The notes under the pieces are model-generated. The model worked only from the letters and a program-made list of their open reading frames with translations, made no database searches and had not been told where the DNA came from. A stretch of DNA of 64,000 nt from Longimicrobiales bacterium (lineage in GTDB: Bacteria > Gemmatimonadota > Gemmatimonadetes > Longimicrobiales > RSA9): assembly GCA_046483065.1 (NCBI GenBank), contig JAWODW010000089.1, positions 96,403 through 160,402 of the forward strand. The letters run 5' to 3'. Position numbers and translations under genes: made by a program. Positions 11,631 through 47,911 of the stretch are shown piece after piece (position 1 is the stretch's first letter; each line of letters starts with the position of its first letter).

Positions 11631-12785
11631 TCAATCGACGCGTGTGACGACCACGAAGGAGACATCGGTCTCCGCACCTCGAGCCTGCACCTTCTGGAAG
11701 GCCGCCTGGAGGAGACGTGCGAGCTCTGCGGGCTCGGCGTCGGCCCGTCCCCTCACCAGTTCCACGGCGCCCTTCACGAGGCCTGTGGGCGCCTCGGAGA
11801 AGGCCAGGAGCGTGTCGCCGGGCGCGAGGTCGAGGGTGGTGACGTCGTAGTCGAAGTGGGGCAGGATCCCCAGTGGCGGGCCGTGGGTAGGGGCCTCCTC
11901 GGTGGTGCCATTGCCGCGGAGGATGACGGCGGGCTGGTCGCCGGCGCAGCTCCATGCCAGGGTGCCGTCCTGGATGTAGATCAGGGCGGCTTCCACGCAC
12001 TCGTCGAGCCCCTCGAAGAGGTTCTGGAAGGTGGCGCTGTTCAGGCGACGGAGGAGCGTCCCGGCCTCCTCGCCGGGCCCCAGCTCCCGGAGCAGCGCCC
12101 GGGTGATGGCGATGAGGTAGGCCGGCGGCAGCCCCGTGCCCTTCACGTCCATGAGGGTCAGGATGGTGCGGCCGTCCTCGGTGGTGAACCCGTCCCAGAG
12201 CGACCCTCCGCCCACCGCCTCGTCCCGGGCGGTGGCGCCGGCGATGTGGAACCCATCGGCCTGGGGTGCGCTGCGGGGCTCGAGCCCCTGGAGGACCAGG
12301 CGGCCGAACTCACGGAACGCGTCGCCGCCGCCGCCGGACTCCCGGGCGGCGAAGCGGACGTCCAGCGCCCGCAGCGCCCGAGCGAGGCCTCGCATCAAGC
12401 GCACCGCGATGGACTCGCCGCCCAGCAGCTCCTCGAACTCGATCTTGGCGACGGTCAGGAGCTGGGTGTCCTCCACGGCCCGGACGGATGCCGATCGGGG
12501 CGCGTCGTTCAGGAGCGACATCTCGCCGAAGGCCTCGCCACCCCGTTTCACCGCGAGCCGCTCGTGGTCGCCCAACGGCCGCTCCTTCAGGATCTCCACG
12601 GCGCCGTCGAACACGATGTAGAACTTGTCGCCGCGGTCACCCTCCCGGAAGAGGAACTCTCCTGCATTGATTTCCCTGGGGTTCACGAGATCAGCGATCC
12701 GCTCCAGGTCGGCGCGCGGGAGTCCCTGAAAGAGGGGGACGCGCCCCAGGACCTCGATGACGTGCTCGGCCGTCTCTGCGCTCAT
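11631..12785 (-). CDS. Cyclic-nucleotide-binding domain fused to a SpoIIE/PP2C-type phosphatase domain
   Basis: The N-terminal cNMP-binding domain carries the phosphate-binding cassette FGEMSLLNDAPRSASVRA. The C-terminal half resembles SpoIIE (GGSLWDGF...MDVKGTGLPPAYL...GDTLLAFSEA). Confidence 0.8.
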   Translation of the reverse strand: MSAETAEHVIEVLGRVPLFQGLPRADLERIADLVNPREINAGEFLFREGDRGDKFYIVFDGAVEILKERPLGDHERLAVKRGGEAFGEMSLLNDAPRSASVRAVEDTQLLTVAKIEFEELLGGESIAVRLMRGLARALRALDVRFAARESGGGGDAFREFGRLVLQGLEPRSAPQADGFHIAGATARDEAVGGGSLWDGFTTEDGRTILTLMDVKGTGLPPAYLIAITRALLRELGPGEEAGTLLRRLNSATFQNLFEGLDECVEAALIYIQDGTLAWSCAGDQPAVILRGNGTTEEAPTHGPPLGILPHFDYDVTTLDLAPGDTLLAFSEAPTGLVKGAVELVRGRADAEPAELARLLQAAFQKVQARGAETDVSFVVVTRVD

Positions 12786-12983
12786 GCGGGTGCCTCCACC
12801 GGCGAGTGCTGAATGAGGGAACGATGGAATCTAGGGCATGGGTGCCCTCCCGCAAAAGGGAATGAAAGACTTGCAGGGGGTCGGCGCGACGGCCATTTTG
12901 ACCTTTCGACCTGTGGGTACCGACTCCCGAGTCCCCGCATCCTCTCCCTGTTTCCTGCGGTCGCCAGCGCCCTTACGACGATT

Positions 12984-13922
12984 ATGCACGGTGAAGTGAA
13001 GTCAGACACGGTGGACACGCCGAGCGCATCACAGGCGGGCGCGGCGGGTTCGGTCCTGCGTGCCACCTGCTGGGGTACGCGCGGATCGATCCCGAGCCCG
13101 GGGCCGGCCACGGCGCGTTTCGGCGGGAACACGTCCTGCCTGGAGATCCGCACCGACGACGACCGGTGCCATATCTTCGACGCGGGCACCGGGATCCGGG
13201 TGCTGGGCAACCGTCTGGTCCAGGAGGACGGGCCCACGACCGTGAACCTGTTCGTGACCCATTTCCACTGGGACCACATTCAGGGGATCCCGTTCTTCGA
13301 TCCGCTGCACGCGGAGGGCAGCTTCATCCGGATCCACGCAGCCCGCCAGGGCGACCTGGACATCGAGACGCTGCTGAAGGCACAGATGGGGCCGGTCTAC
13401 TTCCCGGTGCCGTACGAGGCGCTGGCGGCGGACCTCTCCTTCGAACACCTGTCGGGCGAGCCGTGGCGCGACAATGGGACGGAGGTGGCGGCCTACCGGG
13501 CCCGCCACGCGGCCTATACGTACGGCTACCGGATCACCACCGGGGCCTCGGCGGTGGCGTACATCCCGGACAACGAGCTGGTGGGGTCGAGCTATCCGGT
13601 GGACGGTCCCGACTGGTACCCCGGCCTGCTCGATTTCCTGGACGGCGTGGACCTGCTCTTCCACGACGCCATGTTCACCGAGGAGGAGTACCCCAGCGTG
13701 GAAGGCTGGGGTCACAGCACGTTCAAGCAGGCCGTGGAGCTCGCCGAGGACGCGGGCGTGAAGCGGCTGTACTTCTTTCATCATGCGCCCGAGCGAACCG
13801 ATGCCGAGCTCCTGAACATCCTCGACCGGATGCGGGAGGACGTGGATCGGCGCGGGTCCGGCCTCGAGCTGGGCGTCGCGGCGGAGGGCGAAGAACTCCT
13901 GGTTCAGGGAGGCGAATCGTGA
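12984..13922 (+). CDS. MBL-fold metallo-hydrolase (possible cyclic-nucleotide phosphodiesterase)
   Basis: THFHWDH metal motif and a GTRGS...GGNTSC N-terminal pattern. Start set at the ATG at 12984. The PDE role is inferred from context only. Confidence 0.8.
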   Translation: MHGEVKSDTVDTPSASQAGAAGSVLRATCWGTRGSIPSPGPATARFGGNTSCLEIRTDDDRCHIFDAGTGIRVLGNRLVQEDGPTTVNLFVTHFHWDHIQGIPFFDPLHAEGSFIRIHAARQGDLDIETLLKAQMGPVYFPVPYEALAADLSFEHLSGEPWRDNGTEVAAYRARHAAYTYGYRITTGASAVAYIPDNELVGSSYPVDGPDWYPGLLDFLDGVDLLFHDAMFTEEEYPSVEGWGHSTFKQAVELAEDAGVKRLYFFHHAPERTDAELLNILDRMREDVDRRGSGLELGVAAEGEELLVQGGES

Positions 13923-15868
13923 GAATCCGACATTTCCTGGTCCTGGCGGCCGTCACCCTGTTCGTGGCGTTCGGGCCGCCGGAGCGGACTTCACCGGCGA
14001 AGTGGGCGCTGGTCGTCGGGATCAGCGACTACACCCACTTCGGCGACGAGGTCGGGGGCGACCTGCCGGGCGCGGCGAACGACGCCCGGGCCATCGCCGA
14101 TGTGCTGGTCAACAAGTACGACTTCGCGCCGGGGAACGTGAAGCTGATCCTCGATGGGGCCGCGACCCGTGCCCGGCTCGAATCGGAGTGGACCGAGTGG
14201 CTGCCGTCCGTGGCCCGGCCCGGAGATCTGGTCTGGTTCTACTTCGCCGGTCACGGCTCCCAGGCGTGGGACCTGGACGGCGACGAGGAGGACGGCCTCG
14301 ACGAGACCGTATGCCCGGCGGACGTGACCCGGGGCAACACGGACATGGACATCCTCGATGACGAGATCGGCCAGTGGCTGGACCAGCTCCCGACCGACAA
14401 CGTGATCGTGGTCTGGGACAAGTGCCACGCCAAGAGCAGCACCCGGGCGGTCACGCCGTTCGCGCGGCCCCGGTCGCTGGACCGGAACGTGAAGGAGGAT
14501 GTGGCCAAGCCGGAGGGCGCCACCGAGGGCCGGACCACGGCGGCCGCCGAGGACGGCGGGCCGTCCGGCTCCGGCGTGCTCGAGATCGCGTCGGCCCAGG
14601 CCGATGAAGTGGCCATCGACGCCGCGTTCCCCAGCAAGCAGGGCGGCGACCCGACGTACGGCGGCGCGTTCACCACGCCCTTCGTCCAGAACATGTGGAA
14701 CGCGACGGATGAAGCCACCTACGAGGAGGTCTTCAACCAGACCAAGGGCGCCATGCGGCGGAACCGGTTCCGGCAGGAACCGGCCATCGATGACAAATCG
14801 CTGAAGGATCGACCGCTCTTCTGGGTCGATGCCGAGGCGGAGGCGGGCGCGGACGAGCCGGAAGCGGTGCCCGGCGCGACCTCCGCAACGGCCCCGGTGA
14901 AGGGTACCGTTCGGATCCTCGAGCTGCCGTCGGAGACCCAAGCCATTCTGGCCGGCGGGTTCAACGCCGACATCACGGCCCGCTCCATCTATACCGCCGG
15001 CGACGAGGTGCTGGAAGTCACCCGCGTCGACCCGGATCGGGCCGAGGCTCGAGTGACTACCCGGGAGACCCGGGGGATCGGCGTGAGTCGGGAGGGCGAG
15101 ATGGCGGTCGGCTCCCGGGCGCGGCTGGTGGCGTACCGCTACCCGGACGCCATGCTGCAGGTGATGGTGGCGGATCTGCCGGGGCGGGTGCAGGCGGGGC
15201 TCCGCAGTGAGCTGGTCAGCGTGCCGTCGCTGGTCCTGGTCACGGACCCGACGGCGTTCTCGCACCTGCTGGTACGCCCCAGGAACGACCATTACGTGGT
15301 CCTGAACCTGGACGGCTTCCCCCGGGACTCAGTGGCCGCGTCCGACGAGGCGGCCGAAGAGCTGGCCTCGCTGCTGAAACGGGAGTTCGGCCAGTTCCAG
15401 CTCACGGAGCTGGAGAACCCGGGCCAGCCGTTCGACGTCGACTTCACGTTCGGCAGCGGCGGCAACGAGTTCCGCCTGGGTGAGACCGTCTCGTTCCGGG
15501 TGGTCTCCGATCGGGAAGGGTACCTGACCATCGTGGACCTGGCGCCCGACGGCACAGTGAGTGTGATCTTCCCCAATGAGTACGTGGCGGAGAACCGCGT
15601 GTACGCGAATCGGCCCACCGAGTTCCCGACGCCCGACATGAACCTCCAGTTCACGGCCATCGAGCCCGTGGGCCGCGGGGTGGTCCGGACGTTCGTGACG
15701 GAACGGCCGCTGGTCATGCCCTTCGCACAGGGTGCGGACGCCGCGGAGGCGGAGCGGATCTGGCAGGCGCTGCGGAACGCGGCGGGCCGATCGCCGATCC
15801 AGGGCAGTGACGCCATCCCGGTCCACAACTGGGCCACGTCGGCCATCGTCTACGAGATCCGGCGCTAG
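13919..15868 (+). CDS. Exported caspase-like (peptidase C14) protein with DUF4384-like C-terminal domain
   Basis: The GTG at 13919 overlaps the upstream TGA (GTGA). Hydrophobic N-terminus. Catalytic His in FYFAGHGSQ and Cys in WDKCHAKS. C-terminal GETVSFRVVSDREGYLTIVDLAPDGTVSVIFPNEY matches the DUF4384 pattern. Confidence 0.85.
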   Translation: MRIRHFLVLAAVTLFVAFGPPERTSPAKWALVVGISDYTHFGDEVGGDLPGAANDARAIADVLVNKYDFAPGNVKLILDGAATRARLESEWTEWLPSVARPGDLVWFYFAGHGSQAWDLDGDEEDGLDETVCPADVTRGNTDMDILDDEIGQWLDQLPTDNVIVVWDKCHAKSSTRAVTPFARPRSLDRNVKEDVAKPEGATEGRTTAAAEDGGPSGSGVLEIASAQADEVAIDAAFPSKQGGDPTYGGAFTTPFVQNMWNATDEATYEEVFNQTKGAMRRNRFRQEPAIDDKSLKDRPLFWVDAEAEAGADEPEAVPGATSATAPVKGTVRILELPSETQAILAGGFNADITARSIYTAGDEVLEVTRVDPDRAEARVTTRETRGIGVSREGEMAVGSRARLVAYRYPDAMLQVMVADLPGRVQAGLRSELVSVPSLVLVTDPTAFSHLLVRPRNDHYVVLNLDGFPRDSVAASDEAAEELASLLKREFGQFQLTELENPGQPFDVDFTFGSGGNEFRLGETVSFRVVSDREGYLTIVDLAPDGTVSVIFPNEYVAENRVYANRPTEFPTPDMNLQFTAIEPVGRGVVRTFVTERPLVMPFAQGADAAEAERIWQALRNAAGRSPIQGSDAIPVHNWATSAIVYEIRR

Positions 15869-15890
15869 CCCGGGGGAGGGGAAGCGCTGA

Positions 15891-18080
15891 ATGGAGCGGC
15901 AACGCTGGATCCTGGCAGGGGTGGCGGCGCTGCTGGCGGCAGGCGTGGCCCACGGCCTCACCCATATGCAGTTCTTCGACCCCATCTTCGGGCAGGCGGA
16001 GGACCGCACGCTGGCGTGGCGGCAGCGGTCGGTGGCCAGTGAGCCCCGGGACTCCAGCGAGATCCGCCTGGTCCTCCTGGATGAGGAGAGCGCGGAGAGC
16101 GCGCCGTACATCAGTCCGTTCCCACGGGGGGTGCTCGCCGATGTCATCGAAGTGGCGTCCGCCTTCGGCGCCGACGCCATCGGCCTCGACGTCTACCTCC
16201 AGCGCCGCTACCCGGAGCTGGACCCTGTGGGTGGCGGCGATGAACGGCTCCGGGCCGCCATCGAGAAGGCCGGCAACGTGATCCTGGCGGCGCCGCTGGC
16301 CCAGACTGACAGCGGGTGGGTCACGGAGCCGCCCGATCCCTACTTCGCCGAGGCGGCCGCCGGCGTGGGCTACGCCGAGATCCCCACGGCGTTCGACGTG
16401 GTCTCGGAGGCGACGCTGTTCACTCGAACGGTGAGCGACGGGTTGGTCCCGGGCTTCGCCCTGGCCACCTACGCCCAGGCCGAGGGGCTCGACGTCGACT
16501 CCCTCATGGCGTCCATCGAGGAGAAAGGGTACCTGGATCTGCCGGGGCTGCCCCGGGAGTTCGGCGGGCTGAAGGCGGACGTCCCCGTCCACAACATCCG
16601 GATCCTCTTCGCCGGCCCGCCGAGCCGACCCGCCCGGCTGGAGGTCGGCGCCGGGGGGCAGACCACGGGGACCGGCGCCGAGGGCGGCACGGGCGCGTTC
16701 ACGGCCTTCGCATCGGAGGCCGTAAGCCTCCTGAGCGACCTGGTGGCCATGAACCCGGACCTGGTCAGCGATTTCTACGGCTTCGGCGACAACGTGGTCA
16801 TGGTGGGGAGCGGGTTCCATCCGGAGGAGAAGTTCAAGACCCCGTTCTACGACGCGACCGATGAAGCCGGGAAGATCTACGGCTGGATGTTCGGGACGGA
16901 GGTCCACGCCAACGCGCTGCACGACCTCCTGACCGGGAAGTACGTCCGGCCCCTCAGCGACGCCCGGAACTTCTTCCTGCTCCTGATCCTCGCCGGGATC
17001 ACGGCAGGCGTCACCTTCTGGCGGGGCGTCACGTGGGGCGCCATCGCGGTGATCGGGCTGTTCCTGGCCGATGCCGTCACCGCCTGGATCGCCTTTGACG
17101 CCACCTTCCTCCATGTGCCCGTGGTGGGCCCGGCCCTGGCCGCCGGCTTCGCGTTCCTGGGCTCCACCTCCTACATCAGCATCATCGAGGGGAAAGAGAA
17201 GCGGGCCATCCGGAGCGCCTTCGGGAAGTACCTCTCGCCGGTGGTAGTGGACGAGCTGGTGGCCGACCCGTCGCGGCTGAAGCTGGGCGGTGAGAAGCGG
17301 GAGCTGAGCATCCTGTTCAGCGACCTGGCGGGCTTCACGAGCCTCTCCGAGTCGCTGGAGCCCGACCTGCTGGTGGGGCTGCTGAACGAATACCTCGATG
17401 ACATGGCGGACATCGTCATGAGCGAGGGCGGCACGCTGGACAAGTACATCGGTGACGCCATCATGGCGCTCTACGGCGCGCCGGCACCGCTCCCGGACCA
17501 CGCCGTCCGGGTGTGCCGCACCGCGCTCCGGATGCAGCGACGGCTGGAGCAGCTGAACAGCGGGTGGGCCGAGGCCGGTCGGCCGCAGCTCGGGATGCGC
17601 ATCGGGATCAACACCGGTCACCCCGTGGTGGGCAACATCGGCGGGGAGAAGCGGTTCGACTACACCGCCCTGGGCGACGCCGTGAACCTGGCCGCCCGGC
17701 TCGAGCCGGCGTGCAAGATCTACCGCGTGGACACCATGATCGCCCACGGCACGCGGGAGGCCGCCGGCGACGCCATCCGGACCCGGGAGCTGGACCTCCT
17801 GGCCGTGTACGGCAAGGAGGAGCCCGTCCCGGTGTACGAGCTGGTGGCGCTGGCCGGTGAGGAGCTGGGTGAGCGGGCGGAGTTGATCGAGCAGTTCGAG
17901 AAGGGGATCGAGGCCTATCGGAACCGCGACTTCGAGCTCGCGAAGACATACTTCGAGGCCGCACTCGAGATCGATGCGGAAGACGGGCCGTCCTTCCTGT
18001 ACGTGGAGCGATGCAACGAATACATGACCAACCCGCCGCCGGCCGAATGGGACGGTGTGGAGCGGCGGCAGGTGAAATGA
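15891..18080 (+). CDS. CHASE2 sensor domain / class III adenylate (or guanylate) cyclase
   Basis: N-terminal extracytoplasmic region followed by three or more TM helices. Cyclase core motifs LSILFSDLAGFT, DKYIGDAIMA and YTALGDAVNLAARLE. TPR-like tail. Confidence 0.88.
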   Translation: MERQRWILAGVAALLAAGVAHGLTHMQFFDPIFGQAEDRTLAWRQRSVASEPRDSSEIRLVLLDEESAESAPYISPFPRGVLADVIEVASAFGADAIGLDVYLQRRYPELDPVGGGDERLRAAIEKAGNVILAAPLAQTDSGWVTEPPDPYFAEAAAGVGYAEIPTAFDVVSEATLFTRTVSDGLVPGFALATYAQAEGLDVDSLMASIEEKGYLDLPGLPREFGGLKADVPVHNIRILFAGPPSRPARLEVGAGGQTTGTGAEGGTGAFTAFASEAVSLLSDLVAMNPDLVSDFYGFGDNVVMVGSGFHPEEKFKTPFYDATDEAGKIYGWMFGTEVHANALHDLLTGKYVRPLSDARNFFLLLILAGITAGVTFWRGVTWGAIAVIGLFLADAVTAWIAFDATFLHVPVVGPALAAGFAFLGSTSYISIIEGKEKRAIRSAFGKYLSPVVVDELVADPSRLKLGGEKRELSILFSDLAGFTSLSESLEPDLLVGLLNEYLDDMADIVMSEGGTLDKYIGDAIMALYGAPAPLPDHAVRVCRTALRMQRRLEQLNSGWAEAGRPQLGMRIGINTGHPVVGNIGGEKRFDYTALGDAVNLAARLEPACKIYRVDTMIAHGTREAAGDAIRTRELDLLAVYGKEEPVPVYELVALAGEELGERAELIEQFEKGIEAYRNRDFELAKTYFEAALEIDAEDGPSFLYVERCNEYMTNPPPAEWDGVERRQVK

Positions 18081-18097
18081 GGAAAGGGAGGGTCGCA

Positions 18098-19048
18098 ATG
18101 CGGTCCATACACACGCGAATGGGATCCATCGTCCTGGCGCTCATGCTCACCGCGGGCGTGGCCGCGGCCGCCGTGGTGCTGCCGGCGGAGCCGGTGGCGC
18201 TGCTGGTGAAGTTCGAGGGTGACGTCAACGTCCAGCGGGCGGACGCCGAAACGTCGGAGGCCGGCGCCGTCGGCATGCAGCTGGTGCCCGGTGACCAGGT
18301 GGTGGTGGCCGCCGGCTCCGAAGCCGTGGTCCTCTACAAGACCGGCCAGCTGGTGAAGGCCGCATCGACGGTGACCATCGAGGCGGTGGAAACCGAGGAG
18401 TCGAGCAGTCTGTTCACCAACACCCTGCGCACCCTCGGGCAGGTGGCGAGCACCGACGCCCGGACCCAGCCGAACCGCCAGGGAATGATCCGGCCCATCG
18501 CCGGCGCGCCCGTCCCCATCGCGCCCCGGAACCGGATCAAAGTCCTCGACGTCCGTCCTACCTTCACCTGGTTCAGCGTGGACGGCACGTCGGAGTACAT
18601 GATCCAGCTCCAGCGCCAGGGCGCCGACTCGCCGGCACCGGTCCGGTTCCAGGTGGGTGAGGACACCACGTGGACGCTCCCGTTGACCGAGCCGCCGCTG
18701 GTCCCCGGCGCCACCTACGTCTGGACCGTGGGCAGCCCCGCCGGCCGGGTGGCGGAGCCGAAGCGGTTCACCGTGGCCTCCGCCGAGGACATCGCCGCCG
18801 TACAGGAGGCCATGACAAACCTCATTGGCGCGGGGATCGACCCGGCCACCGATGGCCTCTTCCTCACCGCCCTCGCCTACCGCGACGCCGGGCTCTTCTA
18901 CGAGGCGCACCGGGCCATCGCCGAGATCGAGGAGAACGGCAACGGCACCGGCCGCGCCTTCTTCATGCTGAAGGGCGAGGTGCTGGATACCCTCGGTATG
19001 GTCGACGCGGCGGCCCGGGCGTTCGACAGGGCCGAGGACGCGCCGTAG
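18098..19048 (+). CDS. Exported FecR-like / DUF928-like / TPR protein
   Basis: GGGAGGG lies 5 nt before the ATG at 18098, and an alternative ATG at 18077 overlaps the cyclase stop. Signal peptide present. FecR-like pattern VKFEGDVNVQRA...GMQLVPGDQVVVAAGSEAVVLY. C-terminal TPR. Confidence 0.7.
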   Translation: MRSIHTRMGSIVLALMLTAGVAAAAVVLPAEPVALLVKFEGDVNVQRADAETSEAGAVGMQLVPGDQVVVAAGSEAVVLYKTGQLVKAASTVTIEAVETEESSSLFTNTLRTLGQVASTDARTQPNRQGMIRPIAGAPVPIAPRNRIKVLDVRPTFTWFSVDGTSEYMIQLQRQGADSPAPVRFQVGEDTTWTLPLTEPPLVPGATYVWTVGSPAGRVAEPKRFTVASAEDIAAVQEAMTNLIGAGIDPATDGLFLTALAYRDAGLFYEAHRAIAEIEENGNGTGRAFFMLKGEVLDTLGMVDAAARAFDRAEDAP

Positions 19049-19050
19049 CC

Positions 19051-21036
19051 TTGACCGCCGCCAGCGTGCCCACGGCCACCGCGGACCGGGCGGTCCTTCT
19101 CCACGGGACCGGCTTCGACGCCACCGGGATCGCCGACGCCCTCGAGGCCGAGGGCGTCGGCGTCCGGTCCGCCGCCGACCTGTCCGTTCAGGTCGACGAG
19201 GCCGCCCCCGCCGTGCTGATCCTCGACCGGCAGCACGTGGAGCAGGTCGATGACGTGGCCACCGCACTCGACGCCCTCCCCGTCGGTGTGGTGGTGGTGG
19301 CGTACGGCGAGGTCGCGGAACGCGCCACCGCCGACCATGACCGGTTCTTCCTCGCCGTCCCCGAGACGGCCGACGAACGGACCGTCCTCAAGGTGCTCCA
19401 GGGCGCGTTCCGTCACGCCGCCGTCCGGCAGGGTGCCGCCCGGATGGAGCTGGAGCTGGAGAAGAGCCGGGGCGAGCTCGAGGAGCTGAACCAGATCGGG
19501 ATGGCGCTCATGACCGAGCGCGACCCGGACCGGCTGCTCCGCAAGATCCTCGACCGGGCCATGTCCATGACCGGCTCCGATGGCGGCAGCCTCTACCTGG
19601 TGGAGGACGACCCCGAAGGCGACGGCCAGCGGCTCCGGTTCAAGCTGTCCGAGACCCAGTCGCTGCCGGACCTTCCGGCCATCGAGTTCACCCTGCCCAT
19701 CGACCAGGGCAGCATTGCCGGGTACGTGGCGGTGAACAACCAGGCGCTGGTCATCGAAGATGCGTACAGCATCCCCGAGAGCGCGCCCTACTCCTTCAAC
19801 CGCGGCTTCGACCAGGAGTACGGCTACCGGGCCAAGTCGATGCTGGTAGTCCCCATGGCCGACCACAGGGACGAGGTGGTGGGCGTGCTCCAGCTCATCA
19901 ACCGGAAGCGGGACCCGGAGGCCGTGATCCACGACGAGGACTCCGTCGCCGAGCACGTCCTCTCCTACGGCCGCCACGAGGTCGGTCTGGTCCGCGGCCT
20001 CGCCGGCCAGGCCGCCGTCTCCATCGAGAACGCGCGGCTCTACGAGCAGATCGAGGACATCTTCGAGGCCTTTGTCCGGGCCGCCGTGGCCGCCATCGAC
20101 CAGCGGGACCCGACCACCGCCGGTCACAGCGTGCGTGTGGCCGCCCTGACCACCCGCATCGCCGAGGTCCTGCCCCGGCTCTCGTCCGGCCGCTGGGCCG
20201 GGACCCGCATGAGCCGCGAGCAGATGAAGGAGCTCCGCTACGCCGCCCTCCTCCACGACTTCGGCAAGGTCGGCGTCCGCGAGCAGGTGCTGGTGAAGGC
20301 GAAGAAGCTGCCGCCCCACCTGTGGGAGCGGGTCGACGCGCGGTTCGACGTCATCCACCGGACCATCGAGCGGGAGTACCTGCGCCGGAAGCTTCGGGCC
20401 GTGGAGCAGGGTGAGCTGGAGGGGCTCGAGGCCGACCCCGACGCGCTGGACCAGGAGGTGCGCGAGAAGCTCCAGGAGCTCGAGGAGTGGCGCGAAGCCG
20501 TCCATCGGGCCAACGAGCCGTCGATCCTGCCCGAGGAGGGCGAGGCACTGCTCAACGTCATCGCCGGCGAGACCTTCGAGAACGTCCATGGGCAGGAGGA
20601 GCCCTTCCTCCACGACGAGGAGCACGCCTACCTCAGCATCCCCAAGGGCAGCCTGAACGAGCGAGAGCGGAAGGAGATCGAGTCCCACGTCACCCAGACG
20701 TACAATTTCCTGACCCAGATCCCGTGGACCGAGGAGCTGAGCGACGTGGCCACCATCGCCTACGGGCACCACGAGAAGCTCAGCGGCCGCGGCTACCCCC
20801 GGGGCGTCGGCGGCGACGAGCTCCCCGTCCAGACCCGGATGATGACCATCGCCGACATCTTCGACGCCCTCACCGCCTCCGACCGTCCGTACAAGAAAGC
20901 CCTCGGCGCCGACCGCGCCCTCGAGATCCTCGAAATGGAGGCCGGCGACGGCGACCTCGACCGCGACCTCGTGGGCCTGTTCATCGAGTCGAAGGTCTAC
21001 GAAGAGGTCCTGGAAAAGGACTGGCGAGAGCTGTAG
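19051..21036 (+). CDS. Receiver-like domain / GAF / HD-GYP phosphodiesterase
   Basis: HD-GYP signatures HSVRVA, LLHDFGKVGV and HHEKLSGRGYPRGV. A GAF-like segment precedes them. Start is TTG 19051 or GTG 19066 (uncertain). Confidence 0.85.
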   Translation: MTAASVPTATADRAVLLHGTGFDATGIADALEAEGVGVRSAADLSVQVDEAAPAVLILDRQHVEQVDDVATALDALPVGVVVVAYGEVAERATADHDRFFLAVPETADERTVLKVLQGAFRHAAVRQGAARMELELEKSRGELEELNQIGMALMTERDPDRLLRKILDRAMSMTGSDGGSLYLVEDDPEGDGQRLRFKLSETQSLPDLPAIEFTLPIDQGSIAGYVAVNNQALVIEDAYSIPESAPYSFNRGFDQEYGYRAKSMLVVPMADHRDEVVGVLQLINRKRDPEAVIHDEDSVAEHVLSYGRHEVGLVRGLAGQAAVSIENARLYEQIEDIFEAFVRAAVAAIDQRDPTTAGHSVRVAALTTRIAEVLPRLSSGRWAGTRMSREQMKELRYAALLHDFGKVGVREQVLVKAKKLPPHLWERVDARFDVIHRTIEREYLRRKLRAVEQGELEGLEADPDALDQEVREKLQELEEWREAVHRANEPSILPEEGEALLNVIAGETFENVHGQEEPFLHDEEHAYLSIPKGSLNERERKEIESHVTQTYNFLTQIPWTEELSDVATIAYGHHEKLSGRGYPRGVGGDELPVQTRMMTIADIFDALTASDRPYKKALGADRALEILEMEAGDGDLDRDLVGLFIESKVYEEVLEKDWREL

Positions 21037-24052: not shown

Positions 24053-25822
24053 CTACCGGTCCCTGTCCGGCCCCGCCTCGGCGGCCGCGCCCGCCACCGC
24101 CAGGGGCACATCCCCCAGCCCGGAGTACTGCGGGTTCTGGCGCCCGTCAGTGGCCTGGCTCACGCCCCCCTTCACGAAGGAGGCCACCTCGACGAAGGTG
24201 ACGATCCCGTTGCCGTCGGCGTCGGCGTCGCCGTTCAGGCCCTGGAGGATGTGGTGGGTGAATACGCCGTGGCCACCGCCCCAGCGTGCGTCCTCGAAGC
24301 TGAGCTCGTTGACGTCGGCGGCGGTCAGGGTGAGCCGGCGGGACGGGGTGAACAGGTCGTCGAAGGAGCCGCCGATGGGATTGCCCTGGGCGTCGGTCTC
24401 GCTCCCGCCGGTGCCGGCGGAGTGGCAGGCGTCGGCGATGACCACCACGCGCTCGGCGGAGATCTGGCGCCGCAGCGCGGTCTTCACGTCCCACATGGGG
24501 AACCCGGTGGAGGCCAGGGCGTCGATGTCGGTATCGACGGGGAAGAGGTACAGGTTGTCGGGCCGGTTCGGGTCGGGCGCGCCGTGGCCGGCGAAGTAGA
24601 TGACCACGAGGTCGTCCCAGTCGGCCTGCTGGAGGAAGACGAACATGGCCTCGCGCATGGCGGCGCCGGTGGCCTGCTCGTCGGTCAGCAGGAGGATGTG
24701 GTCCTCGTCGAACGGACCGGCGGCGTCGGAGCGGAGGAAGTCGTGGATCGCACGGGCGTCGTCATCGGCGTAGTCGAGGTCGGGGATGAGCCCGTCGTCG
24801 TAGTCACCGATCCCGATGACCACGGCCCAGCGCTCGTCGATGCGGGGCGACGCGAAGGCGGTGCGGGTATTGCCGGCGCCGTCCCGGGCCACCACGCGGA
24901 CCGAGTCCCGGTCCAGCGCCAGCGGGGTCTGGACGACGAACCGCGATGCCGGCCCCCGGGTGATCCCCAGCCGCTGGGCGTCGGCGGCGCTCAGCCGCTC
25001 GAGGGAGGCGGGCTCGCCCTCGACCTCCACGGCCACGTCAGCGCCGATGACCACGCCCTCGATCTCCACCAGGTTCGTGGCGTTCTGCTGCGCCTCGTGC
25101 TCCTCCCGGGAGATGACGCCGATCCCGCGGGTGGCCATGTCGCTGTCGGCCACGGGCTCGATCCGGGTCCCGAGGATGGCGAGGCCGGGGCCGCGGCTGC
25201 TGCCGCTCCGGCCCACTGCCTCCTCCACGGAGCCCGGGTCCGGCTGGAAGTAGCCCCGGGCGGCCCAGCCGTTGGCCTCCCAGTCATTCACGATGGCGCC
25301 GAGGAAGCCGGTCTCGGTGATCACTTCCTCGGCGGCGATCCGGATGGCGCCGGCCCGTGCGGCCTGGTCGGTGGCCTCCAGCTCCCGGCCGGAGCCGTGG
25401 GCCGTGGCCACTACGTTGCCCTGGTCGAGACGGAGCGCCCGGAGGCGGAGCTCGCTGGTGCCGGTGACGAGGGTGCCGGAGATGGGGTCCAGGTTCGTGC
25501 CCCACTCGGCCCGACCCAGGATCAGAACCTGAGCGCCGAAGTCGCGGCCGAGGCGGACGGCGGCGCCCTCGTCGCCATCGAGCGCCGCCTGGACCAGCTC
25601 GCGCTGCGCCGCGGTGTGGGCCAGCGCCGGGTCCACCAGCGGGAAGCCGGCCTCCAGCAGGAACGACGAGACCTCGCTCGCCGCCACGCCGGCGCTCCCG
25701 TTTTCGGGGACGAACACCAGCGTCCGGGGCAGCTCGCTCTCGAATCGGATCTCCTGGGCGTCGGCCGGGGCCGTCGCAAGAGCACCCACCAGTATCAGGC
25801 CCAGCGCTACCAGTCGCTTCAT
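24053..25822 (-). CDS. Exported caspase-like (C14) protein with N-terminal CsgG/LpoB-like domain and C-terminal EF-hand-like loop
   Basis: Signal peptide MKRLVALGLILVGALATAPADA. Catalytic His in IYFAGHGAP and Cys in IADACHSAG. DADGNGIVTFVE fits the 12-residue EF-hand loop. Confidence 0.85.
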   Translation of the reverse strand: MKRLVALGLILVGALATAPADAQEIRFESELPRTLVFVPENGSAGVAASEVSSFLLEAGFPLVDPALAHTAAQRELVQAALDGDEGAAVRLGRDFGAQVLILGRAEWGTNLDPISGTLVTGTSELRLRALRLDQGNVVATAHGSGRELEATDQAARAGAIRIAAEEVITETGFLGAIVNDWEANGWAARGYFQPDPGSVEEAVGRSGSSRGPGLAILGTRIEPVADSDMATRGIGVISREEHEAQQNATNLVEIEGVVIGADVAVEVEGEPASLERLSAADAQRLGITRGPASRFVVQTPLALDRDSVRVVARDGAGNTRTAFASPRIDERWAVVIGIGDYDDGLIPDLDYADDDARAIHDFLRSDAAGPFDEDHILLLTDEQATGAAMREAMFVFLQQADWDDLVVIYFAGHGAPDPNRPDNLYLFPVDTDIDALASTGFPMWDVKTALRRQISAERVVVIADACHSAGTGGSETDAQGNPIGGSFDDLFTPSRRLTLTAADVNELSFEDARWGGGHGVFTHHILQGLNGDADADGNGIVTFVEVASFVKGGVSQATDGRQNPQYSGLGDVPLAVAGAAAEAGPDRDR

Positions 25823-26499
25823 CAGCCTCCTCCTTCCACCCGCTCGAGGGCCGCCGCCGCGGCCCCGTGCCGTGGGAACAGCTCCAGGGCTCTCCTGTAC
25901 ATCTCCGCCGCCCGCGCGTCCTGGCCGTGTTCCTCGTAGGCCAGCCCGCGGGAGTAGGCGAGGACCGCCTCCACCGGCGGATCCGCGTCCCCGGCGGCCA
26001 CCCGGGTGGGCAGCTCCAGGCCGTCCAGGAAATCGTCGGCCAGCGCTGTCACCAGGTCGAGCATCCGGTCGCGCCCGCCCTGCTGCCGGCTCGCCTTCTC
26101 CACCGTGCCGCTGGCCACATCCAGGACCCGGAGATCGATGCGGGCGCGCTCCGGCTCCAGGGCCACGTTGCCGATCACGATGTACTGGGCGCCCAGCAGC
26201 CTGCCGAGCTCCAGCGCCCGGGACTCGTCCATCCGCCCGGACAGGGCGAGCTGCCGGCTCTCGATGAGCTGCTGGATCTGCTGCCGGTCGACCACGTGGA
26301 CCTGCGGCCGGTCCGCCAGCACCGTGGTGATCATGGTGGCGAGCCCGCGACCCACGGCGTCGGCGTCCTCACCGGTGAGGGAGAAAGCGTTGAAATCCAA
26401 TACGGCGATGGTCGGGACCCGGGGTCCCTCCGCATCCTGCGCCGCCGCCGAAACGGGCAGCAGGAGCGCGAGCATCAGTAGGGCAAGCGGTGGAAACAC
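25822..26499 (-). CDS. CsgG/LpoB-like domain plus TPR protein, exported
   Basis: The GTG at 26499 has GGAGG 5 nt upstream and a signal peptide follows. Domain sequence TIAVLDFNAFS...VHVVDRQQIQQLIESRQLALSG...LGRLLGAQYIVIGNV. The stop shares one base with the caspase ATG (TGATG). Confidence 0.7.
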   Translation of the reverse strand: MFPPLALLMLALLLPVSAAAQDAEGPRVPTIAVLDFNAFSLTGEDADAVGRGLATMITTVLADRPQVHVVDRQQIQQLIESRQLALSGRMDESRALELGRLLGAQYIVIGNVALEPERARIDLRVLDVASGTVEKASRQQGGRDRMLDLVTALADDFLDGLELPTRVAAGDADPPVEAVLAYSRGLAYEEHGQDARAAEMYRRALELFPRHGAAAAALERVEGGG

Positions 26500-26590
26500 G
26501 GGTACCTCCGCGTGACGCGCAGAACGAAGAAGGGAGAGCGCCCAAACGGGCAAGCCGTAAGGTAAAGCACCCGAGCGGATGGGAAAAGAA

Positions 26591-26646
26591 GAGCTAAGAG
26601 CTAAGATCTGAGATCTGAGAACTGAGATCTAAGGAATCGGATCTGC
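26591..26646 (+). repeat. Tandem heptamers GAKCTRA (about 8 units), AT-rich
   Basis: Read directly as GAGCTAA GAGCTAA GATCTGA GATCTGA GAACTGA GATCTAA GGAATCG GATCTGC. A related array lies at 56450-56477 in inverted orientation. Confidence 0.9.
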
Positions 26647-26726
26647 ACGTCTGGATGAACGGTTCTTGCCCCGAACTCATCGCGTGGCCAACCTAGGTGC
26701 AGACCATTGACCGGGAACAAGTAATC

Positions 26727-26948
26727 ATGCGCGTGACGATCGAATATTGCGGACTGTGAAACTATCTCCCTCGAGCCTCCAGGATGGCGGCACGGATCAC
26801 GGAGGAGTTCCCCGACGCCGAGGTCGAGCTCATCGAGTCCGGCGGCGGTGTCTTCGAGGTGGAACGCAACGGCGAGTTGATCTATTCGAAGAAGCGGACG
26901 GGCCGGCACGCCGAGTGGGAAGAGGTGCGGGACCGGCTGGCGGAATGA
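26727..26948 (+). CDS. SelW/Rdx-family redox protein with in-frame TGA (putative selenocysteine, CxxU)
   Basis: Translating through the TGA at 26757-26759 gives MRVTIEYCGLUNYLPRASRMAARITEEFPDAEVELIESGGGVFEVERNGELIYSKKRTGRHAEWEEVRDRLAE. This matches the Rdx pattern V.IEYC..U....RA......FP...V.L..G..G.FEV..NG.LI.SK...GR. Confidence 0.75.
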
Positions 26949-26990
26949 GATGATACCTCGACACGCTCGTCCAGTGAGGAGGCCGTACCC

Positions 26991-28076
26991 ATGAGCAAGC
27001 GAATCGCCATCAGCACAGGCGGCGGCGACGCCCCCGGGTTGAACGCCGTGATCCGGGCCACGGTACTCTCGGCGGTGAACCGTGGCTGGGAGGTCTACGG
27101 GATCCGGAAAGGGTATGGCGGGCTGCTGGGCGAGGACGAGATCGTGCGGCTGGACTCCCAGGCGGTCCGGGGAATCACCCATGTGGGCGGCACGATCCTG
27201 GGCACCACGAACCGGGGCAACCCGTTCGAATGGCCGGTGGAGGACGACGACGGGACCACCCGTGTCATCGACCGGAGCGACGAGGTCATCGAGAACTTCA
27301 AGCGCCGTGAGTTCGACGCCATGGTGGCCATCGGCGGCGACGGCTCGCTCCATATCGCCAACGAGCTGTGGAAAAAGGGGCTGCCGGTGGTGGGGGTCCC
27401 GAAGACCATCGACAACGACCTGGCCGCCACCCAGGTCACCTTCGGGTTCCACACCGCAGTGCAGACCGCGTCGGAGGCGCTGGACAAGCTCCACTCAACG
27501 GCCGAGAGCCACGAGCGAGTCATGGTGGTGGAGCTCATGGGCCGCCACACCGGCTGGATCGCGCTCTTCGCCGGCGTCAGCGCCACGGCCGACGTGATCC
27601 TGATCCCCGAGATCCCGTACGACGTCGCGAAGGTGTGCGACAAGATCCGGGAGCGGGACGCCACCGGCCGCCTCTTCTCCATCGTGGTGGTGGCCGAGGG
27701 CGCGAAGCCGGTGGAGGGCGGTGCGTCATTGGCCGAGGAGGCCGGGCCCGGCAAGGAGGCCCGCTACGGCGGGATCGCAGAGCAGATCGCCCACCAGATC
27801 GCAGAGCGCACGGGCAAGGAGACCCGGTCGCTGGTCCTGGGACACCTGCAGCGCGGCGGGTCGCCCATCGCCTACGACCGGTTGATCGCGCTCCGGTTCG
27901 GCGCCGCCGCCGTGCGCTACGTGGCCGACGGCGCCTACGGCACCATGGTGGCGCTGGACCCACCCGGCGTCCGGGCCGTCCCGCTCGTGGAGGCCACCCG
28001 CAGGACCAAGGCGGTACCGCTGGACTCGGACGTGGTGGAAACCGCCCGGGACCTGGGGATCTCCTTCGGCGACTGA
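26991..28076 (+). CDS. pfkA: ATP-dependent 6-phosphofructokinase
   Basis: Motifs GGGDAPGLNAVIRA, IGGDGSL (Gly, not Asp, which suggests the ATP type) and PKTIDNDL. Confidence 0.9.
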   Translation: MSKRIAISTGGGDAPGLNAVIRATVLSAVNRGWEVYGIRKGYGGLLGEDEIVRLDSQAVRGITHVGGTILGTTNRGNPFEWPVEDDDGTTRVIDRSDEVIENFKRREFDAMVAIGGDGSLHIANELWKKGLPVVGVPKTIDNDLAATQVTFGFHTAVQTASEALDKLHSTAESHERVMVVELMGRHTGWIALFAGVSATADVILIPEIPYDVAKVCDKIRERDATGRLFSIVVVAEGAKPVEGGASLAEEAGPGKEARYGGIAEQIAHQIAERTGKETRSLVLGHLQRGGSPIAYDRLIALRFGAAAVRYVADGAYGTMVALDPPGVRAVPLVEATRRTKAVPLDSDVVETARDLGISFGD

Positions 28077-43601: not shown

Positions 43602-44521
43602 CGGAGCGGGCGAGCCGTGCCGTGGAGGCGGCGCTGGCGTGGTTGAAGACCCGGGACGCGCCCGAGTCCGCCATCGCCGCCCACGAGGTTGGAAGGGACC
43701 CATCGCCCGAGGACGCCCGGCGCTGGGTCCGCTGGATCGTGGACCGGGAGCGGAACGGCGCCTGGGACACCGAGCTGCCGGCCACACTCCGGTCGCTCCA
43801 GGTCCTCCGGGAGCTGCGGGAGGCCGCCTCGTTGAAGGAGCAGGACCCGGCGATCGGCCGGGCGCTGGACTGGGTCCGGGACCGACAGGGGATGGCCGGC
43901 GCGTGGACCGATGGCTGCTCGCCGGCCCGGCATCGGCAGGGGTTCTGCCATCATTTCACCGCCGGCTTCTTCAGCCCCGCCGCGCCGGACGCCATCCTGG
44001 GGGGCCTGGACCTGCCGTCCGGCGTCCGTACGGCGGGCGAGGCAGAGACCCGGTTCGCCCTCTCGGCGGGGGCGCTCCGGTGCGTCCTTCTGTGGCGCGG
44101 CCCCGGCACCGATGATCGGCTGCACCTGGAGGCGCTCTGCAGGGTGCTGGCCGTGTGGCCCGAGGCGCGGCCGGAGGGGCTCACCACCAACGGGCTCCTG
44201 GCCGCCGTCCACGCGCTCCTGGCGTCTCCCGACGCGGCGGACCGGGACGCGGCGGTGCGCGGGCTCCGGACCGTGGCAGGGACGCAGCGCGGCGACGGGA
44301 GCTGGGTGGACGCGGACCCGTTCCATGCGCTGGAGGTCTTCGGCACGGCCGCCGCGGCCGGCGTGGGCGGGGAGCAGGTGCAGACCACACTGGATTACGG
44401 CGCACGTCTCCTGGTGGCCGCCCAGCACGGCGACGGGTCGTGGGGCCCGGAGCACGGGCCCCGGCGGGCGCTCATCGCCCTGAGAACGCTCCGCCGGTCG
44501 GGTCCGTCGACGGCGGGATGA
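43598..44521 (+). CDS. Prenyltransferase/squalene-oxidase-repeat-like (alpha/alpha toroid) protein
   Basis: Repeated ..Q..DG(S/A)W.. units (ERNGAWD, RQGMAGAWTD, QRGDGSWVD, QHGDGSWG). The ATG overlaps the M20 stop (ATGA). Confidence 0.6.
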   Translation: MTERASRAVEAALAWLKTRDAPESAIAAHEVGRDPSPEDARRWVRWIVDRERNGAWDTELPATLRSLQVLRELREAASLKEQDPAIGRALDWVRDRQGMAGAWTDGCSPARHRQGFCHHFTAGFFSPAAPDAILGGLDLPSGVRTAGEAETRFALSAGALRCVLLWRGPGTDDRLHLEALCRVLAVWPEARPEGLTTNGLLAAVHALLASPDAADRDAAVRGLRTVAGTQRGDGSWVDADPFHALEVFGTAAAAGVGGEQVQTTLDYGARLLVAAQHGDGSWGPEHGPRRALIALRTLRRSGPSTAG

Positions 44522-46829
44522 CCAGCGCGTCCCGGCCCAGGTAGTCCTTGGGGATCCCGCCCCAGCAGACCATGCGGCTGCCGTCCCACGCGCACGTCTC
44601 GCCGCCGCCCCCGACGATCGCCGTGGGCGCGAAGCCCAAGGGCACGGCCATGGGCGTGCGTGTCACCCGCGGCGACGCTCGCCCGAGCTGGAGCTGGTCG
44701 TTCCCGCCCCAGCAGTAGACGGCGCCGGCATCGCCCAGCGCACAGCCGTGGACCCACCCCAGGGTCAGGTCCGTCACCGTGATGGCCGTCGGGAACGTCA
44801 CCGCAGTGGGCGTGCTCACCACGAAGCCGCCGTCGCCGGTCCCGACCTGGCCGGCGGAGTTGTAGCCCCAGCACTCCACGTCGCCGTCTGCGGTGATGCC
44901 GCAGCTGTGGGCTGCACCGGCCACGATCTCTGTGAACGTCTGCCCGCCGCCGACCCGTACGGGCGTGGGGCTGTCGGTCAGGCCGCCATCGCCCAGCTGG
45001 CCCTCCTCGCCGCGGCCCCAGCACCATACCGTCTGGTCGCTCGCGAGCCCACACGTATGGGTCCACCCTGCGGCGAGCCGGATAAACGCGTGCCCGCCGG
45101 TTACGGCCACCGGCGCGGTGGCCGCCGTCCCGGTGCCGCCGCTGCCGAGCTGGCCGAAGTAGTTGGAGCCCCAGCAGTACGCGGCGCCGGCTCCGGTGAG
45201 GCCGCAGGTGTGGGCGCCGCCGGCCGCCAGGTCCACGAGGCCCGCCGGCAGGGCGCTGTCGTCCACCGGCGTGGGCCGGGTCCGGGTCGTGACCGTGCCA
45301 TCCCCGAGCTGCCCGAAGCGGTTGTCGCCCCAGCAGAAGGCCCGGCTCCCGCCGATGGTGTCCACCAGCGCACACGTGTGGAGCCCGCCGCTGTGCACCT
45401 GGGTATGGGCGTGCCCCGTAGACAGGTGCTGGTCGGTCACCGCCACCGCCGTGTCCCGGTTCAGCGTGAGCCCGTCACCGAGCTGGCCGAACTCGCCCTG
45501 CCCGCGGCAGTACACCGTGTTCCAGGTATTCTCGATCCAGCAGCTGTGGGCGTCGCCCACGCTCACGTCCGACGCCGGGCCGACGGTGGAGCCGTCGACC
45601 ACCTCGATCCACGCGTCGTAGCCTGCGCCATCGATCTCGCCGGTGACCCGGGCCGTCGAGAGCTGCCACGGGGCCGACTGCGCGGTGACCGTGCCGCCCG
45701 CGTCCACGTCGGCGATCTCGGGCCGGTTCGAGGTCCACACCGCCGGGTCCGCATCGAGCACGGGCGTACCGCCGGCGTCGAGAGCCACCACCGAGAGGGC
45801 TGCGGTGTCGCCCACTCCCAGTACGGCCCGCGTCGGGAACGGTGCCGCCGCCGTCACCACCTGGTGCACCACCACGAGCACGCTGTCCGCCGTGGGGCCC
45901 ACCGCGCCCACGAAGTACGTGGCGCCGTTGGTACGGGCGATCACGCCGGCCTGCGTGCCGACGTCGTAGCTCCCCTCGGACCGGACCACGCTCACGTCCC
46001 GCACCGTCCAGTTCACGTCCACGTTCCGGACCGTGTCACCGTCCACGCCCAGCGGTGTGGCCCGGACGATCTGGGGCCAGCCAATGGCCGTGATGCTGTC
46101 GGGCGACGCGCTCATGGCCAGCGTCTCCGGCACGACCGGGAGCGACAGCGTGTCCGCCAGCGTCCGGAACGCCACCCGTCCGACGATCTGGACAGTCCGG
46201 CCCCCGTCATGCTTGACCCGTACCCGACCGGCCGAGTCGACGGTGGCGGCCAGCGTGTCCAGCGAGGTCCAGACCATCAACGGGTCGACGATCTCGGTCC
46301 CGTCCCCTGCGGTGCCCACTGCCTCCAGCCGCACCGTGTCACCGGCCAGGAGGGCCTGCGCGGGGCCCTGGGCGTCGATGGCCTCGAGGGTGGCCTCCGG
46401 CCCGGCGTACTCCAGCACCGCTTGGGTCGGTGCGGGTGACGGGTCGTCGGAAGAGAGGGAGAGCGTCTGGCGGGCCTGGAACAGGACGGTGTCGCTTTCC
46501 CGGCCCTGGAGCGTGAAGTCGAACGCCTCCTGCCCCGTGACCTCGAGCGCCACCTCGACCCGGAGCGTGTCCTGGTCCAGCGGCCACTCCACGATCCGGT
46601 CGACCACGGTGTCGCCCGTCTCGTTCACGATCACTACGCGGATGTTGTCCACCAGGAGCGCCGGGTCCGTGCCGTTCACGCCGGCCTCGTGCTGCGCGAA
46701 CCGGGGCTGCACCGTAACGTGTACCCGGCCCCGGTCGGGGCCCAGGGCGTCATCGCACGCCGCGGCCAGGCCCGCCAGCGCGGCCAGGCCCAGGAGTCCG
46801 GGGAGCCAGCGTCGTATCACCGTTGCCAC
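44472..46829 (-). CDS. Lipoprotein with two Big_2-like Ig domains and seven or more RCC1 repeats
   Basis: The GTG at 46829 has GGAGG 7-8 nt upstream. Lipobox LAALAGLAAAC. Big_2-like segments present. Repeated CWG.N.(F/Y)GQLG.G and HTCGL motifs. Confidence 0.82.
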   Translation of the reverse strand: MATVIRRWLPGLLGLAALAGLAAACDDALGPDRGRVHVTVQPRFAQHEAGVNGTDPALLVDNIRVVIVNETGDTVVDRIVEWPLDQDTLRVEVALEVTGQEAFDFTLQGRESDTVLFQARQTLSLSSDDPSPAPTQAVLEYAGPEATLEAIDAQGPAQALLAGDTVRLEAVGTAGDGTEIVDPLMVWTSLDTLAATVDSAGRVRVKHDGGRTVQIVGRVAFRTLADTLSLPVVPETLAMSASPDSITAIGWPQIVRATPLGVDGDTVRNVDVNWTVRDVSVVRSEGSYDVGTQAGVIARTNGATYFVGAVGPTADSVLVVVHQVVTAAAPFPTRAVLGVGDTAALSVVALDAGGTPVLDADPAVWTSNRPEIADVDAGGTVTAQSAPWQLSTARVTGEIDGAGYDAWIEVVDGSTVGPASDVSVGDAHSCWIENTWNTVYCRGQGEFGQLGDGLTLNRDTAVAVTDQHLSTGHAHTQVHSGGLHTCALVDTIGGSRAFCWGDNRFGQLGDGTVTTRTRPTPVDDSALPAGLVDLAAGGAHTCGLTGAGAAYCWGSNYFGQLGSGGTGTAATAPVAVTGGHAFIRLAAGWTHTCGLASDQTVWCWGRGEEGQLGDGGLTDSPTPVRVGGGQTFTEIVAGAAHSCGITADGDVECWGYNSAGQVGTGDGGFVVSTPTAVTFPTAITVTDLTLGWVHGCALGDAGAVYCWGGNDQLQLGRASPRVTRTPMAVPLGFAPTAIVGGGGETCAWDGSRMVCWGGIPKDYLGRDALVIPPSTDPTGGAFSGR

Positions 46830-47911
46830 ATCACACCTCCGCGCAGGACCACTCCGAACACGCTCTCGCCTTCGAGGCTGCCCACCTGGGCCAGCGCCGC
46901 CGGCTCCAGCCGGAGCGACCCGACCCGATAGCTGGCGGCCGAGCCGACGCGGCTGATCCAGCCGCTCCCGGCGCCGAAGCCCGTCTCGCCGCTCTGGACC
47001 ATGAGCTCCGCCTTCGGTCGTAGCGTCAGCGCTCGGGTCAACGGGTAGCTCACGGATGCCCCCGTGCCGAGCAGGCTGCTCGACGGCGTGGGTTGGGGCG
47101 ATCCTCCCACCATCAGCTCGCTCTCCGATCGGTACAGGTTCCACGCGTAGACGCTGGCGGCGCCCCGGAGGAGCGGGAACTCGGCCACCGCCTCGGCCAT
47201 GAGGCGGTCGCCCCGTGCGAAGATCGCCTGGTTGTCCGTCTGGTCCTCGCCGAACCGGCTCCACGACCCCGCCAGACGGACCGTCACGCCCGACGTGCTC
47301 GGCCGCTCCAGCCCGAGCCGGAGCCGGAGCTCGGAGCCCGGCCGGAACTCGGCCGCCTCGGTCCCGGCCGTGGCCACCACCGGCTCGTAGGCCGATCCCA
47401 CCCGATAGACCATGACCCCGCCGGCCACCCAGTCGCCCACGGGCTGGGCCAGCGCGAACCCCGTGGTCACGCCCGCGCCGCTGCCGAAGCTCCGGACGGG
47501 CAGGGTCAGCAGGTCCGTGGTGATGACGCCCGCCACCGGGATCTCGTCGGCGCCCAGCGCGGCCGTGCCCGTGGGCACATTGCCCGCCACGATCAGCCGG
47601 CCGCGGCCGTCCATCATGGGGATCATGCCCCGGACCGTGACGTCCGTCAGCCCGGCCAGCTCGCTGGTCACGCCGCCGGCCTCGTAGCGGGCCGTAGCGT
47701 AGGCCGCGTTGGCATCGAACTGGACGCCGGCCGCCCGGAACGTGAGCCCGAAGGGCACCACCATCTCCGTAAGCGATGCGTCACCGATGGAGAGGGTATG
47801 GAGGCTGGCCTCGGCCACCGCCGTCTGGGCCCGGGCCGCCCCCGGCGCCATCCACGCCGCGAGCGTGAGCGCCGCCGCGACGATGGGCCCCGCCCGTTGT
47901 CGCATTCTCAT
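46817..47911 (-). CDS. Hypothetical exported (possibly outer-membrane barrel) protein
   Basis: Signal peptide ...LAAWMAPGAARAQ. Gly/Ala-rich sequence with alternating hydrophobicity. The ATG overlaps the upstream stop (ATGA). Confidence 0.6.
   Translation of the reverse strand: MRMRQRAGPIVAAALTLAAWMAPGAARAQTAVAEASLHTLSIGDASLTEMVVPFGLTFRAAGVQFDANAAYATARYEAGGVTSELAGLTDVTVRGMIPMMDGRGRLIVAGNVPTGTAALGADEIPVAGVITTDLLTLPVRSFGSGAGVTTGFALAQPVGDWVAGGVMVYRVGSAYEPVVATAGTEAAEFRPGSELRLRLGLERPSTSGVTVRLAGSWSRFGEDQTDNQAIFARGDRLMAEAVAEFPLLRGAASVYAWNLYRSESELMVGGSPQPTPSSSLLGTGASVSYPLTRALTLRPKAELMVQSGETGFGAGSGWISRVGSAASYRVGSLRLEPAALAQVGSLEGESVFGVVLRGGVMWQR

Follow-up and report, generated by a model that had tools for sequence, protein, structure and literature searches.

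A probable selenocysteine-encoding selW-like gene and its conserved downstream hairpin in a Longimicrobiales genome

SelW-like proteins, which carry a CXXU motif, outnumbered every other selenoprotein family in the Sargasso Sea data. Surveys of complete bacterial genomes in 2005-2006 listed them too, and found few Cys homologues in organisms that use selenocysteine (Sec) (PMC1088965, PMC1794560). The components of the bacterial Sec pathway are SelA, SelB, SelC and SelD, and the bacterial SECIS consensus is a stem-loop that closely follows the UGA and has a small apical loop containing G (PMC1088965). In Escherichia coli fdhF, for example, the SECIS is a 17-nt hairpin located 11 nt after the UGA, with a bulged U17 and a loop containing G23-U24 (PMC8659212). 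Mammalian SelW relies on a different mechanism, with the SECIS located in the 3'-UTR (PMC1088965). No mention of Gemmatimonadota for the SelW-like family, and nothing specific on Sec use in this phylum, was found in the searchable literature.

The stretch of DNA analyzed here (64 kb, 69.8% GC, hereafter the window) contains a locus that is very probably a Sec-decoded SelW-like gene of the Rdx family, predicted from its sequence to encode a Cys-x-x-Sec centre near the N-terminus. The gene and its main coding features are as follows.

26727-26948, + strand: predicted selenoprotein gene of the selW-like type (Rdx family), with 73 codons, one of them for Sec, followed by the stop codon TGA at 26946-26948 (based on translation, HMM matches and 80 orthologous loci, the best 80 of 563, with the same architecture)
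26727-26729, + strand: start codon ATG, 10 codons 5' of the predicted Sec codon (a start codon is kept at the aligned position)
26748-26759, + strand: C-G-L-U redox motif, with the Cys codon (C8) at 26748-26750 and the predicted Sec codon TGA (U11) at 26757-26759 (based on invariance and the CxxC alignment)

From the ATG at 26727, the reading frame runs to an in-frame TGA at 26757-26759, which is followed by 62 codons and the terminal TGA. Re-translation yielded MRVTIEYCGL*NYLPRASRMAARITEEFPDAEVELIESGGGVFEVERNGELIYSKKRTGRHAEWEEVRDRLAE, a product of 73 residues when the forward strand is read through the first TGA, in agreement with a preliminary description of this DNA. The same description gave an Arg-rich ORF of 68 aa (26747-26953) as the sole open reading frame at the locus. 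This ORF does lie in another frame, and had zero Pfam matches at E ≤ 1. It is not strictly the only one, however, as an in-frame 54-aa ORF starting at ATG 26784 was also present in the ORF list (minimum length 40 aa).

Membership of the read-through product in the Rdx family is far beyond chance. In HMM searches with the Sec residue (U) entered as C, the product matched Pfam Rdx (PF10262) over profile positions 1-72 of 74 (E = 4.2e-21, 75.4 bits versus a cutoff of 22.6), the NCBIfam equivalog NF041051 "SelT/SelW/SelH family (seleno)protein" (97.2 bits versus a cutoff of 88), and TIGR02174 CXXU_selWTH (63.0 bits versus a cutoff of 34.2). All three matches exceed their cutoffs and bear out the full-length fit to the family, with a CGLU motif, that had been proposed from the letters of the sequence. 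The 54-aa truncation scored only 42.9 bits against Pfam Rdx; hence, the 19 residues around the TGA contribute approximately 32 bits.

Alignment with Cys-containing Rdx homologues had been suggested as a check, and places a Cys on the TGA position. For example, in Atu0228 (PDB 2fa8, E = 3e-10), one of the solved Cys homologues, the motif is CTQC, and C8-G-L-U11 lines up gap-free with this motif and with CEPC of 2ljk, N-terminally and after the first beta-strand. Full-length homology (E = 3e-10 to 4e-4), with CxxC or CxxU at the same aligned position, was found to the solved bacterial Rdx proteins Atu0228 (2fa8), SAV_2001 (3dex), 2ojl, 2oka, 2obk and 2p0g, and to mammalian SelW (2npb, from mouse) and MIEN1 (2ljk). 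The solved bacterial homologues differ in their use of Cys and are approximately 30 residues longer. Homology to these eight solved chains points to a thioredoxin-like fold for the 73-residue protein. In comparison with known bacterial SelW-like selenoproteins, we found no substantive difference: the gene product is alike in size (~70-75 aa), in its N-terminal beta1-CxxU and in its GGxFEV and SKK blocks, and the gene is alike in that a hairpin comes directly after an in-frame UGA and carries a G in its small apical loop. Sec forms also outnumber Cys forms in both (PMC1088965, PMC1794560). Members of the Gemmatimonadota clade are, in addition, often located directly 5' of a phosphofructokinase gene (pfk).

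Among ~5.8 billion public proteins, a search identified 98 relatives. Nearly all of them are 53-58 aa long and have as their first residue the Met equivalent to ATG 26784. These records, which include about 90 public protein clusters (within P0002-P0098) beginning after the Sec codon, speak for a reading in which translation genuinely ends at TGA 26757 and the functional gene is the 54-aa ORF from ATG 26784, encoding an Rdx fragment without the redox motif. The score of this ORF alone, which is above the Pfam cutoff, speaks for it as well. Homologues that start at the downstream ATG had been named in the preliminary description as evidence against recoding, and because the protein records appeared to show exactly this, the underlying DNA of the relatives was inspected. 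When DNA from GTDB genomes, one per species, was scanned, 563 matches were confirmed; the best 80 of these, almost all from Gemmatimonadota MAGs, were kept and aligned with the window (81 sequences in total).

The DNA of these relatives tells against a stop. TGA occupies the aligned position in all of the best 80 of 563 loci, and in the window (81/81). Throughout this alignment M-x-[VIL]-x-I-E-Y-C-x-x stands before the TGA and N-Y-x-P-R-A after it, so that the block earlier seen to continue on both sides of the TGA is borne out in 81/81 sequences. The Cys of the redox motif is invariant (81/81). Codon -10 is a start codon in 79/81 sequences (ATG in 69, GTG in 8 and TTG in 2), and conservation, measured as codon-position entropy, is gone at codon -11. 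Moreover, the residues at codons -6 (Ile) and -3 (Cys) never change, yet the third bases of these codons do (0.83 and 0.47 bits, respectively). The ten codons 5' of the TGA hence evolve as coding sequence. At the position of ATG 26784, CTG is present in 58 sequences and TCG in 2, leaving 60 of the 81 (best 80 of 563 plus the window) without a canonical start codon there. Starts at the downstream ATG thus belong to the protein records, and the DNA of each such locus encodes the upstream block. The truncated protein would also be without beta-strand 1 and the catalytic motif. Taken together, it is very unlikely that the TGA at 26757 terminates the functional gene.

The 53-58 aa annotations of the homologues are a gene-calling artefact, as gene callers stop at the TGA. 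A few database entries are "full-length," with W or R at the Sec position. W is found in P0081, P0086 and P0088, and the W of P0088 corresponds to an in-frame stop under translation table 11 that the caller read through. The R reflects a genuine AGA (Arg) codon in one locus (L081, protein P0001; NCBI GCA_046128415.1; L081 557-562), where all others have the Sec TGA. In L081, the SECIS hairpin is perfect (GCUUCC-AGUCU-GGAAGC) and the downstream pfk is kept despite the AGA, which is explained by a recent mutation that inactivated the gene or by an assembly error.

Two hairpins downstream of the TGA were considered.

26775-26791, + strand: putative conserved bacterial SECIS core, 17 nt, with the 5' arm at 26775-26781, the triloop GGA at 26782-26784 and the 3' arm at 26785-26791 (based on covariation and RNAalifold)
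26766-26807, + strand: outer stem of the preliminary description, 26766-26773 with 26800-26807, enclosing the SECIS core (window- or lineage-specific)

The outer stem, proposed earlier as a possible SECIS, pairs CUCCCUCG (26766-26773) with CGGAGGAG (26800-26807). It exists as drawn, with six Watson-Crick pairs, one G.U pair and one C.A mismatch, and part of it is present in the minimum free energy (MFE) fold. As a conserved SECIS it was ruled out, being paired in 31.9% of cells of the 81-sequence alignment (best 80 of 563 plus the window), compared with 95.7% for the inner helix at 26775-26791. Folding of 26757-26830, recommended in the preliminary description, gave an MFE of -21.8 kcal/mol, which is no better than shuffled sequences (z = +0.76). 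As a single-sequence fold is uninformative in a 70% GC genome, a comparative analysis was undertaken instead.

Using the alignment of the best 80 of 563 loci plus the window (80 distinct sequences), RNAalifold predicted one helix only, at columns 22-28/32-38, corresponding to 26775-26781/26785-26791 in the window. Its 7 bp account for the 95.7% of paired cells given above, and double substitutions occur at three of the seven pairs (G-C/U-A, C-G/G-C/A-U and C-G/U-A). None of 500 shuffles and none of the slid controls reached this level of covariation. The first loop base (column 29, window 26782) is an invariant G. In addition, third-position entropy is 0.00 at codons +7 and +9 (third positions 26780 and 26786) versus ~0.7-1.8 bits at other nearby codons, and such frozen synonymous sites inside the helix indicate that the RNA itself is constrained, in addition to the coding sequence. 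Amino-acid covariation at residues 18 and 21 (26778-26780/26787-26789; columns 25-27/34-36) is a further consequence of the helix, these residues occurring as Ser(UCC)/Glu(GAG), Ala(GCC)/Ala(GCG) and Val(GUC)/Thr(ACG). The window, with Ser/Ala at these residues, represents the mismatched state: its core contains a U.C mismatch at 26778/26788, common to 7/81 sequences, with A.C at this pair in 10 more. The core of the window has a dG of -6.2 kcal/mol, where the family spans -3.8 to -12.0 with its median at -10.7 (best 80 of 563). Two extensions of the core helix were rejected, as they are found in a subset of the 81 sequences only (19-40/21-39 with a bulged G, ~60%; 19-41/20-40, ~15%). No Rfam family reached the gathering threshold over the whole window, and none was detected at E ≤ 10 on 26700-26900.

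These results support the inner hairpin at 26775-26791 as the SECIS, which corrects the earlier assignment to the outer stem. It fits the bacterial consensus in its location immediately downstream of the UGA, its small apical loop and its invariant G. As in E. coli fdhF, it is a 17-nt stem-loop with a G-rich helix within the coding region just 3' of the UGA. The base after the loop G is U in most relatives (67/81), as in G23-U24 of fdhF, and G in the other 14/81, the window among them (loop GGUCU, AGUCU or AGUUU in 64/81; best 80 of 563 plus the window). The fdhF element differs in other respects. In all 81 sequences the spacing is 15 nt rather than 11, and the invariant G is at +26 rather than +23. 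Moreover, the helix is a continuous 7 bp without the bulged U17 (among the same 81, pair 25/35 is mismatched in 17 and a bulged U is present in none), the loop of the window is GGA rather than GUC, and the lower stem is not conserved.

We searched for further signs of Sec decoding around the locus. ARAGORN detected no tRNA gene in the 64-kb window and no tRNA-Sec in 60 related loci, and a Pfam scan of 40 window ORFs gave no SelA, SelB or SelD-type domains. Likewise, tblastn with E. coli SelA, SelB and SelD, which were imperfect probes as the query sequences were approximate, gave no match in the window or in 81 related loci. Two low-sensitivity scans for a second selenoprotein gene in the window, one for a coding signal across an in-frame TGA and one for a SECIS-like motif, yielded only alternative-frame matches that are not credible. 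The SECIS-motif scan missed the selW hairpin because of its mismatch; hence, both scans are regarded as having low sensitivity. An AhpC/TSA-domain protein (52648-54093) was rejected as a second selenoprotein, as its motif is an ordinary WCTPC.

That Sec machinery was not found in the window or related loci, and that L081/P0001 combines AGA with an intact hairpin, would be in keeping with read-through of the UGA without Sec. Such read-through could result from a reassigned code, with UGA meaning Trp or Gly, or from hairpin-stimulated near-cognate suppression, and would place Trp, Cys or another amino acid at residue 11. We regard such decoding as highly improbable. TGA terminates most Pfam-supported ORFs in the window, including the selW-like gene itself, which indicates that the genetic code is standard. 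Moreover, the catalytic Cys occupies this position in CxxC homologues, and no residue other than Sec or Cys would be chemically sensible there; both the hairpin size and the apical-loop G are as expected of a SelB-binding SECIS. The least likely alternative, a pseudogene or a sequencing or assembly error in which a Cys codon (TGC/TGT) was mutated to or misread as TGA, would take only a single-base change in what is apparently a metagenome-type assembly, but is effectively refuted by the presence of the same TGA in 80 independent assemblies (best 80 of 563) at 51-86% protein identity, and of TGC/TGT in 0/80.

Decoding of the UGA as Sec offers the best explanation of the locus, given the family membership, the conserved UGA and flanks, and the conserved and covarying hairpin. 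Weighing against it are the failure to find selA, selB, selD or tRNA-Sec genes in the window and the related loci searched, the mismatch and low stability of the window's SECIS core, a single-sequence fold on a par with shuffles, the missing Rfam match, and the departures from fdhF in spacing and bulge. Translation would begin at ATG 26727, and the ribosome would arrive at the UGA at 26757-26759. Based on knowledge of bacterial Sec decoding, the hairpin at 26775-26791, which starts 15 nt 3' of the UGA, would then recruit SelB-GTP-Sec-tRNASec, and selenocysteine would be inserted instead of termination taking place. Reading would go on to the second TGA (26946-26948), which has no conserved hairpin motif downstream and so would terminate translation. 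The CXXU motif and the Rdx/thioredoxin-like family suggest that the mature protein may cycle between selenolate/thiol and selenenylsulfide forms, acting as a small thiol-dependent oxidoreductase.

The selW-like gene belongs to a kind already known, which is systematically mis-annotated as fragments of 53-58 aa; JGI tags several truncated homologues as "selenoprotein W-related protein." Since standard gene callers truncate a gene in which UGA is read as Sec, the chief value of the result concerns annotation: a predicted 73-aa selenoprotein is invisible to ORF-based calling, and is represented in databases by fragments without the active site. Mildly new are the systematic truncation of the Gemmatimonadota SelW-like clade in public databases, its apparent ubiquity, always in the Sec form, across the best 80 of 563 loci (almost all Gemmatimonadota), and its frequent coupling to pfk. 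Recognition of the gene would imply that this Longimicrobiales-like organism, and most of its sampled relatives, use selenocysteine. It also provides a clean, covariation-supported SECIS alignment for a phylum not mentioned in searchable selenoproteome papers. Knowledge of Sec decoding, and of how Rdx proteins work, is unchanged by it.

The gene following the selW-like gene on the same strand is pfk.

26991-28076, + strand: 6-phosphofructokinase gene, starting 42 nt 3' of the selW-like stop (based on the ORF and the Pfam PFK annotation of the downstream gene in L081)

A PFK homologue is located directly downstream on the same strand in 43/80 loci (best 80 of 563), with an estimated median gap of ~0 nt, and this adjacency is also present in L081 and the window. 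Adjacency with near-zero gaps suggests a conserved two-gene operon in Gemmatimonadota. In the window, no terminator-like site was detected between the two genes, and they are probably co-transcribed. The closest DNA relative, a 'Candidatus Longimicrobiales' MAG, shares 82% nucleotide identity over selW-pfk and 79% beyond. A more speculative reading, which we consider unlikely, is that the SelW-like protein is dedicated to PFK as its redox partner or regulator, and links glycolytic flux to the thiol/selenol redox state. If true, this would be the first physiological role for a bacterial SelW. On a more modest version of this idea, the triloop hairpin, with its 15-nt spacing and no bulge, may represent a distinct SelB-recognition class.

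Upstream of the selW-like gene, the opposite strand carries a CsgG-like lipoprotein gene that adjoins a gene for a caspase-domain (Peptidase_C14) protein (24053-26553). The CsgG-like gene (- strand) and the selW-like gene diverge from an intergenic region in which an AT-richer stretch contains a 7-nt tandem repeat (26589-26633, consensus AAGATCT, 6.4 copies, 86% matches) that could be a promoter or regulatory region. A second CsgG-like lipoprotein gene adjoins a gene for a large RCC1-repeat protein (44475-49446). An IstB-like IS21 helper ATPase (PF01695, E = 6e-75) is encoded at the start of the window (42-839), and probably belongs to an IS21-family element that runs off the window edge. A cyclic-nucleotide signalling cluster is located at 11634-21033, and includes a cNMP-binding and SpoIIE phosphatase protein, a CHASE2 and adenylate/guanylate cyclase protein, and a GAF and HD/HD_5 protein. 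Towards the other end of the window, the - strand carries a complete-looking suf Fe-S operon (56503-62853), comprising an ABC ATPase (SufC-like), two SufB/D proteins, a class-V aminotransferase (SufS-like) and a NifU_N/SufU-like scaffold.
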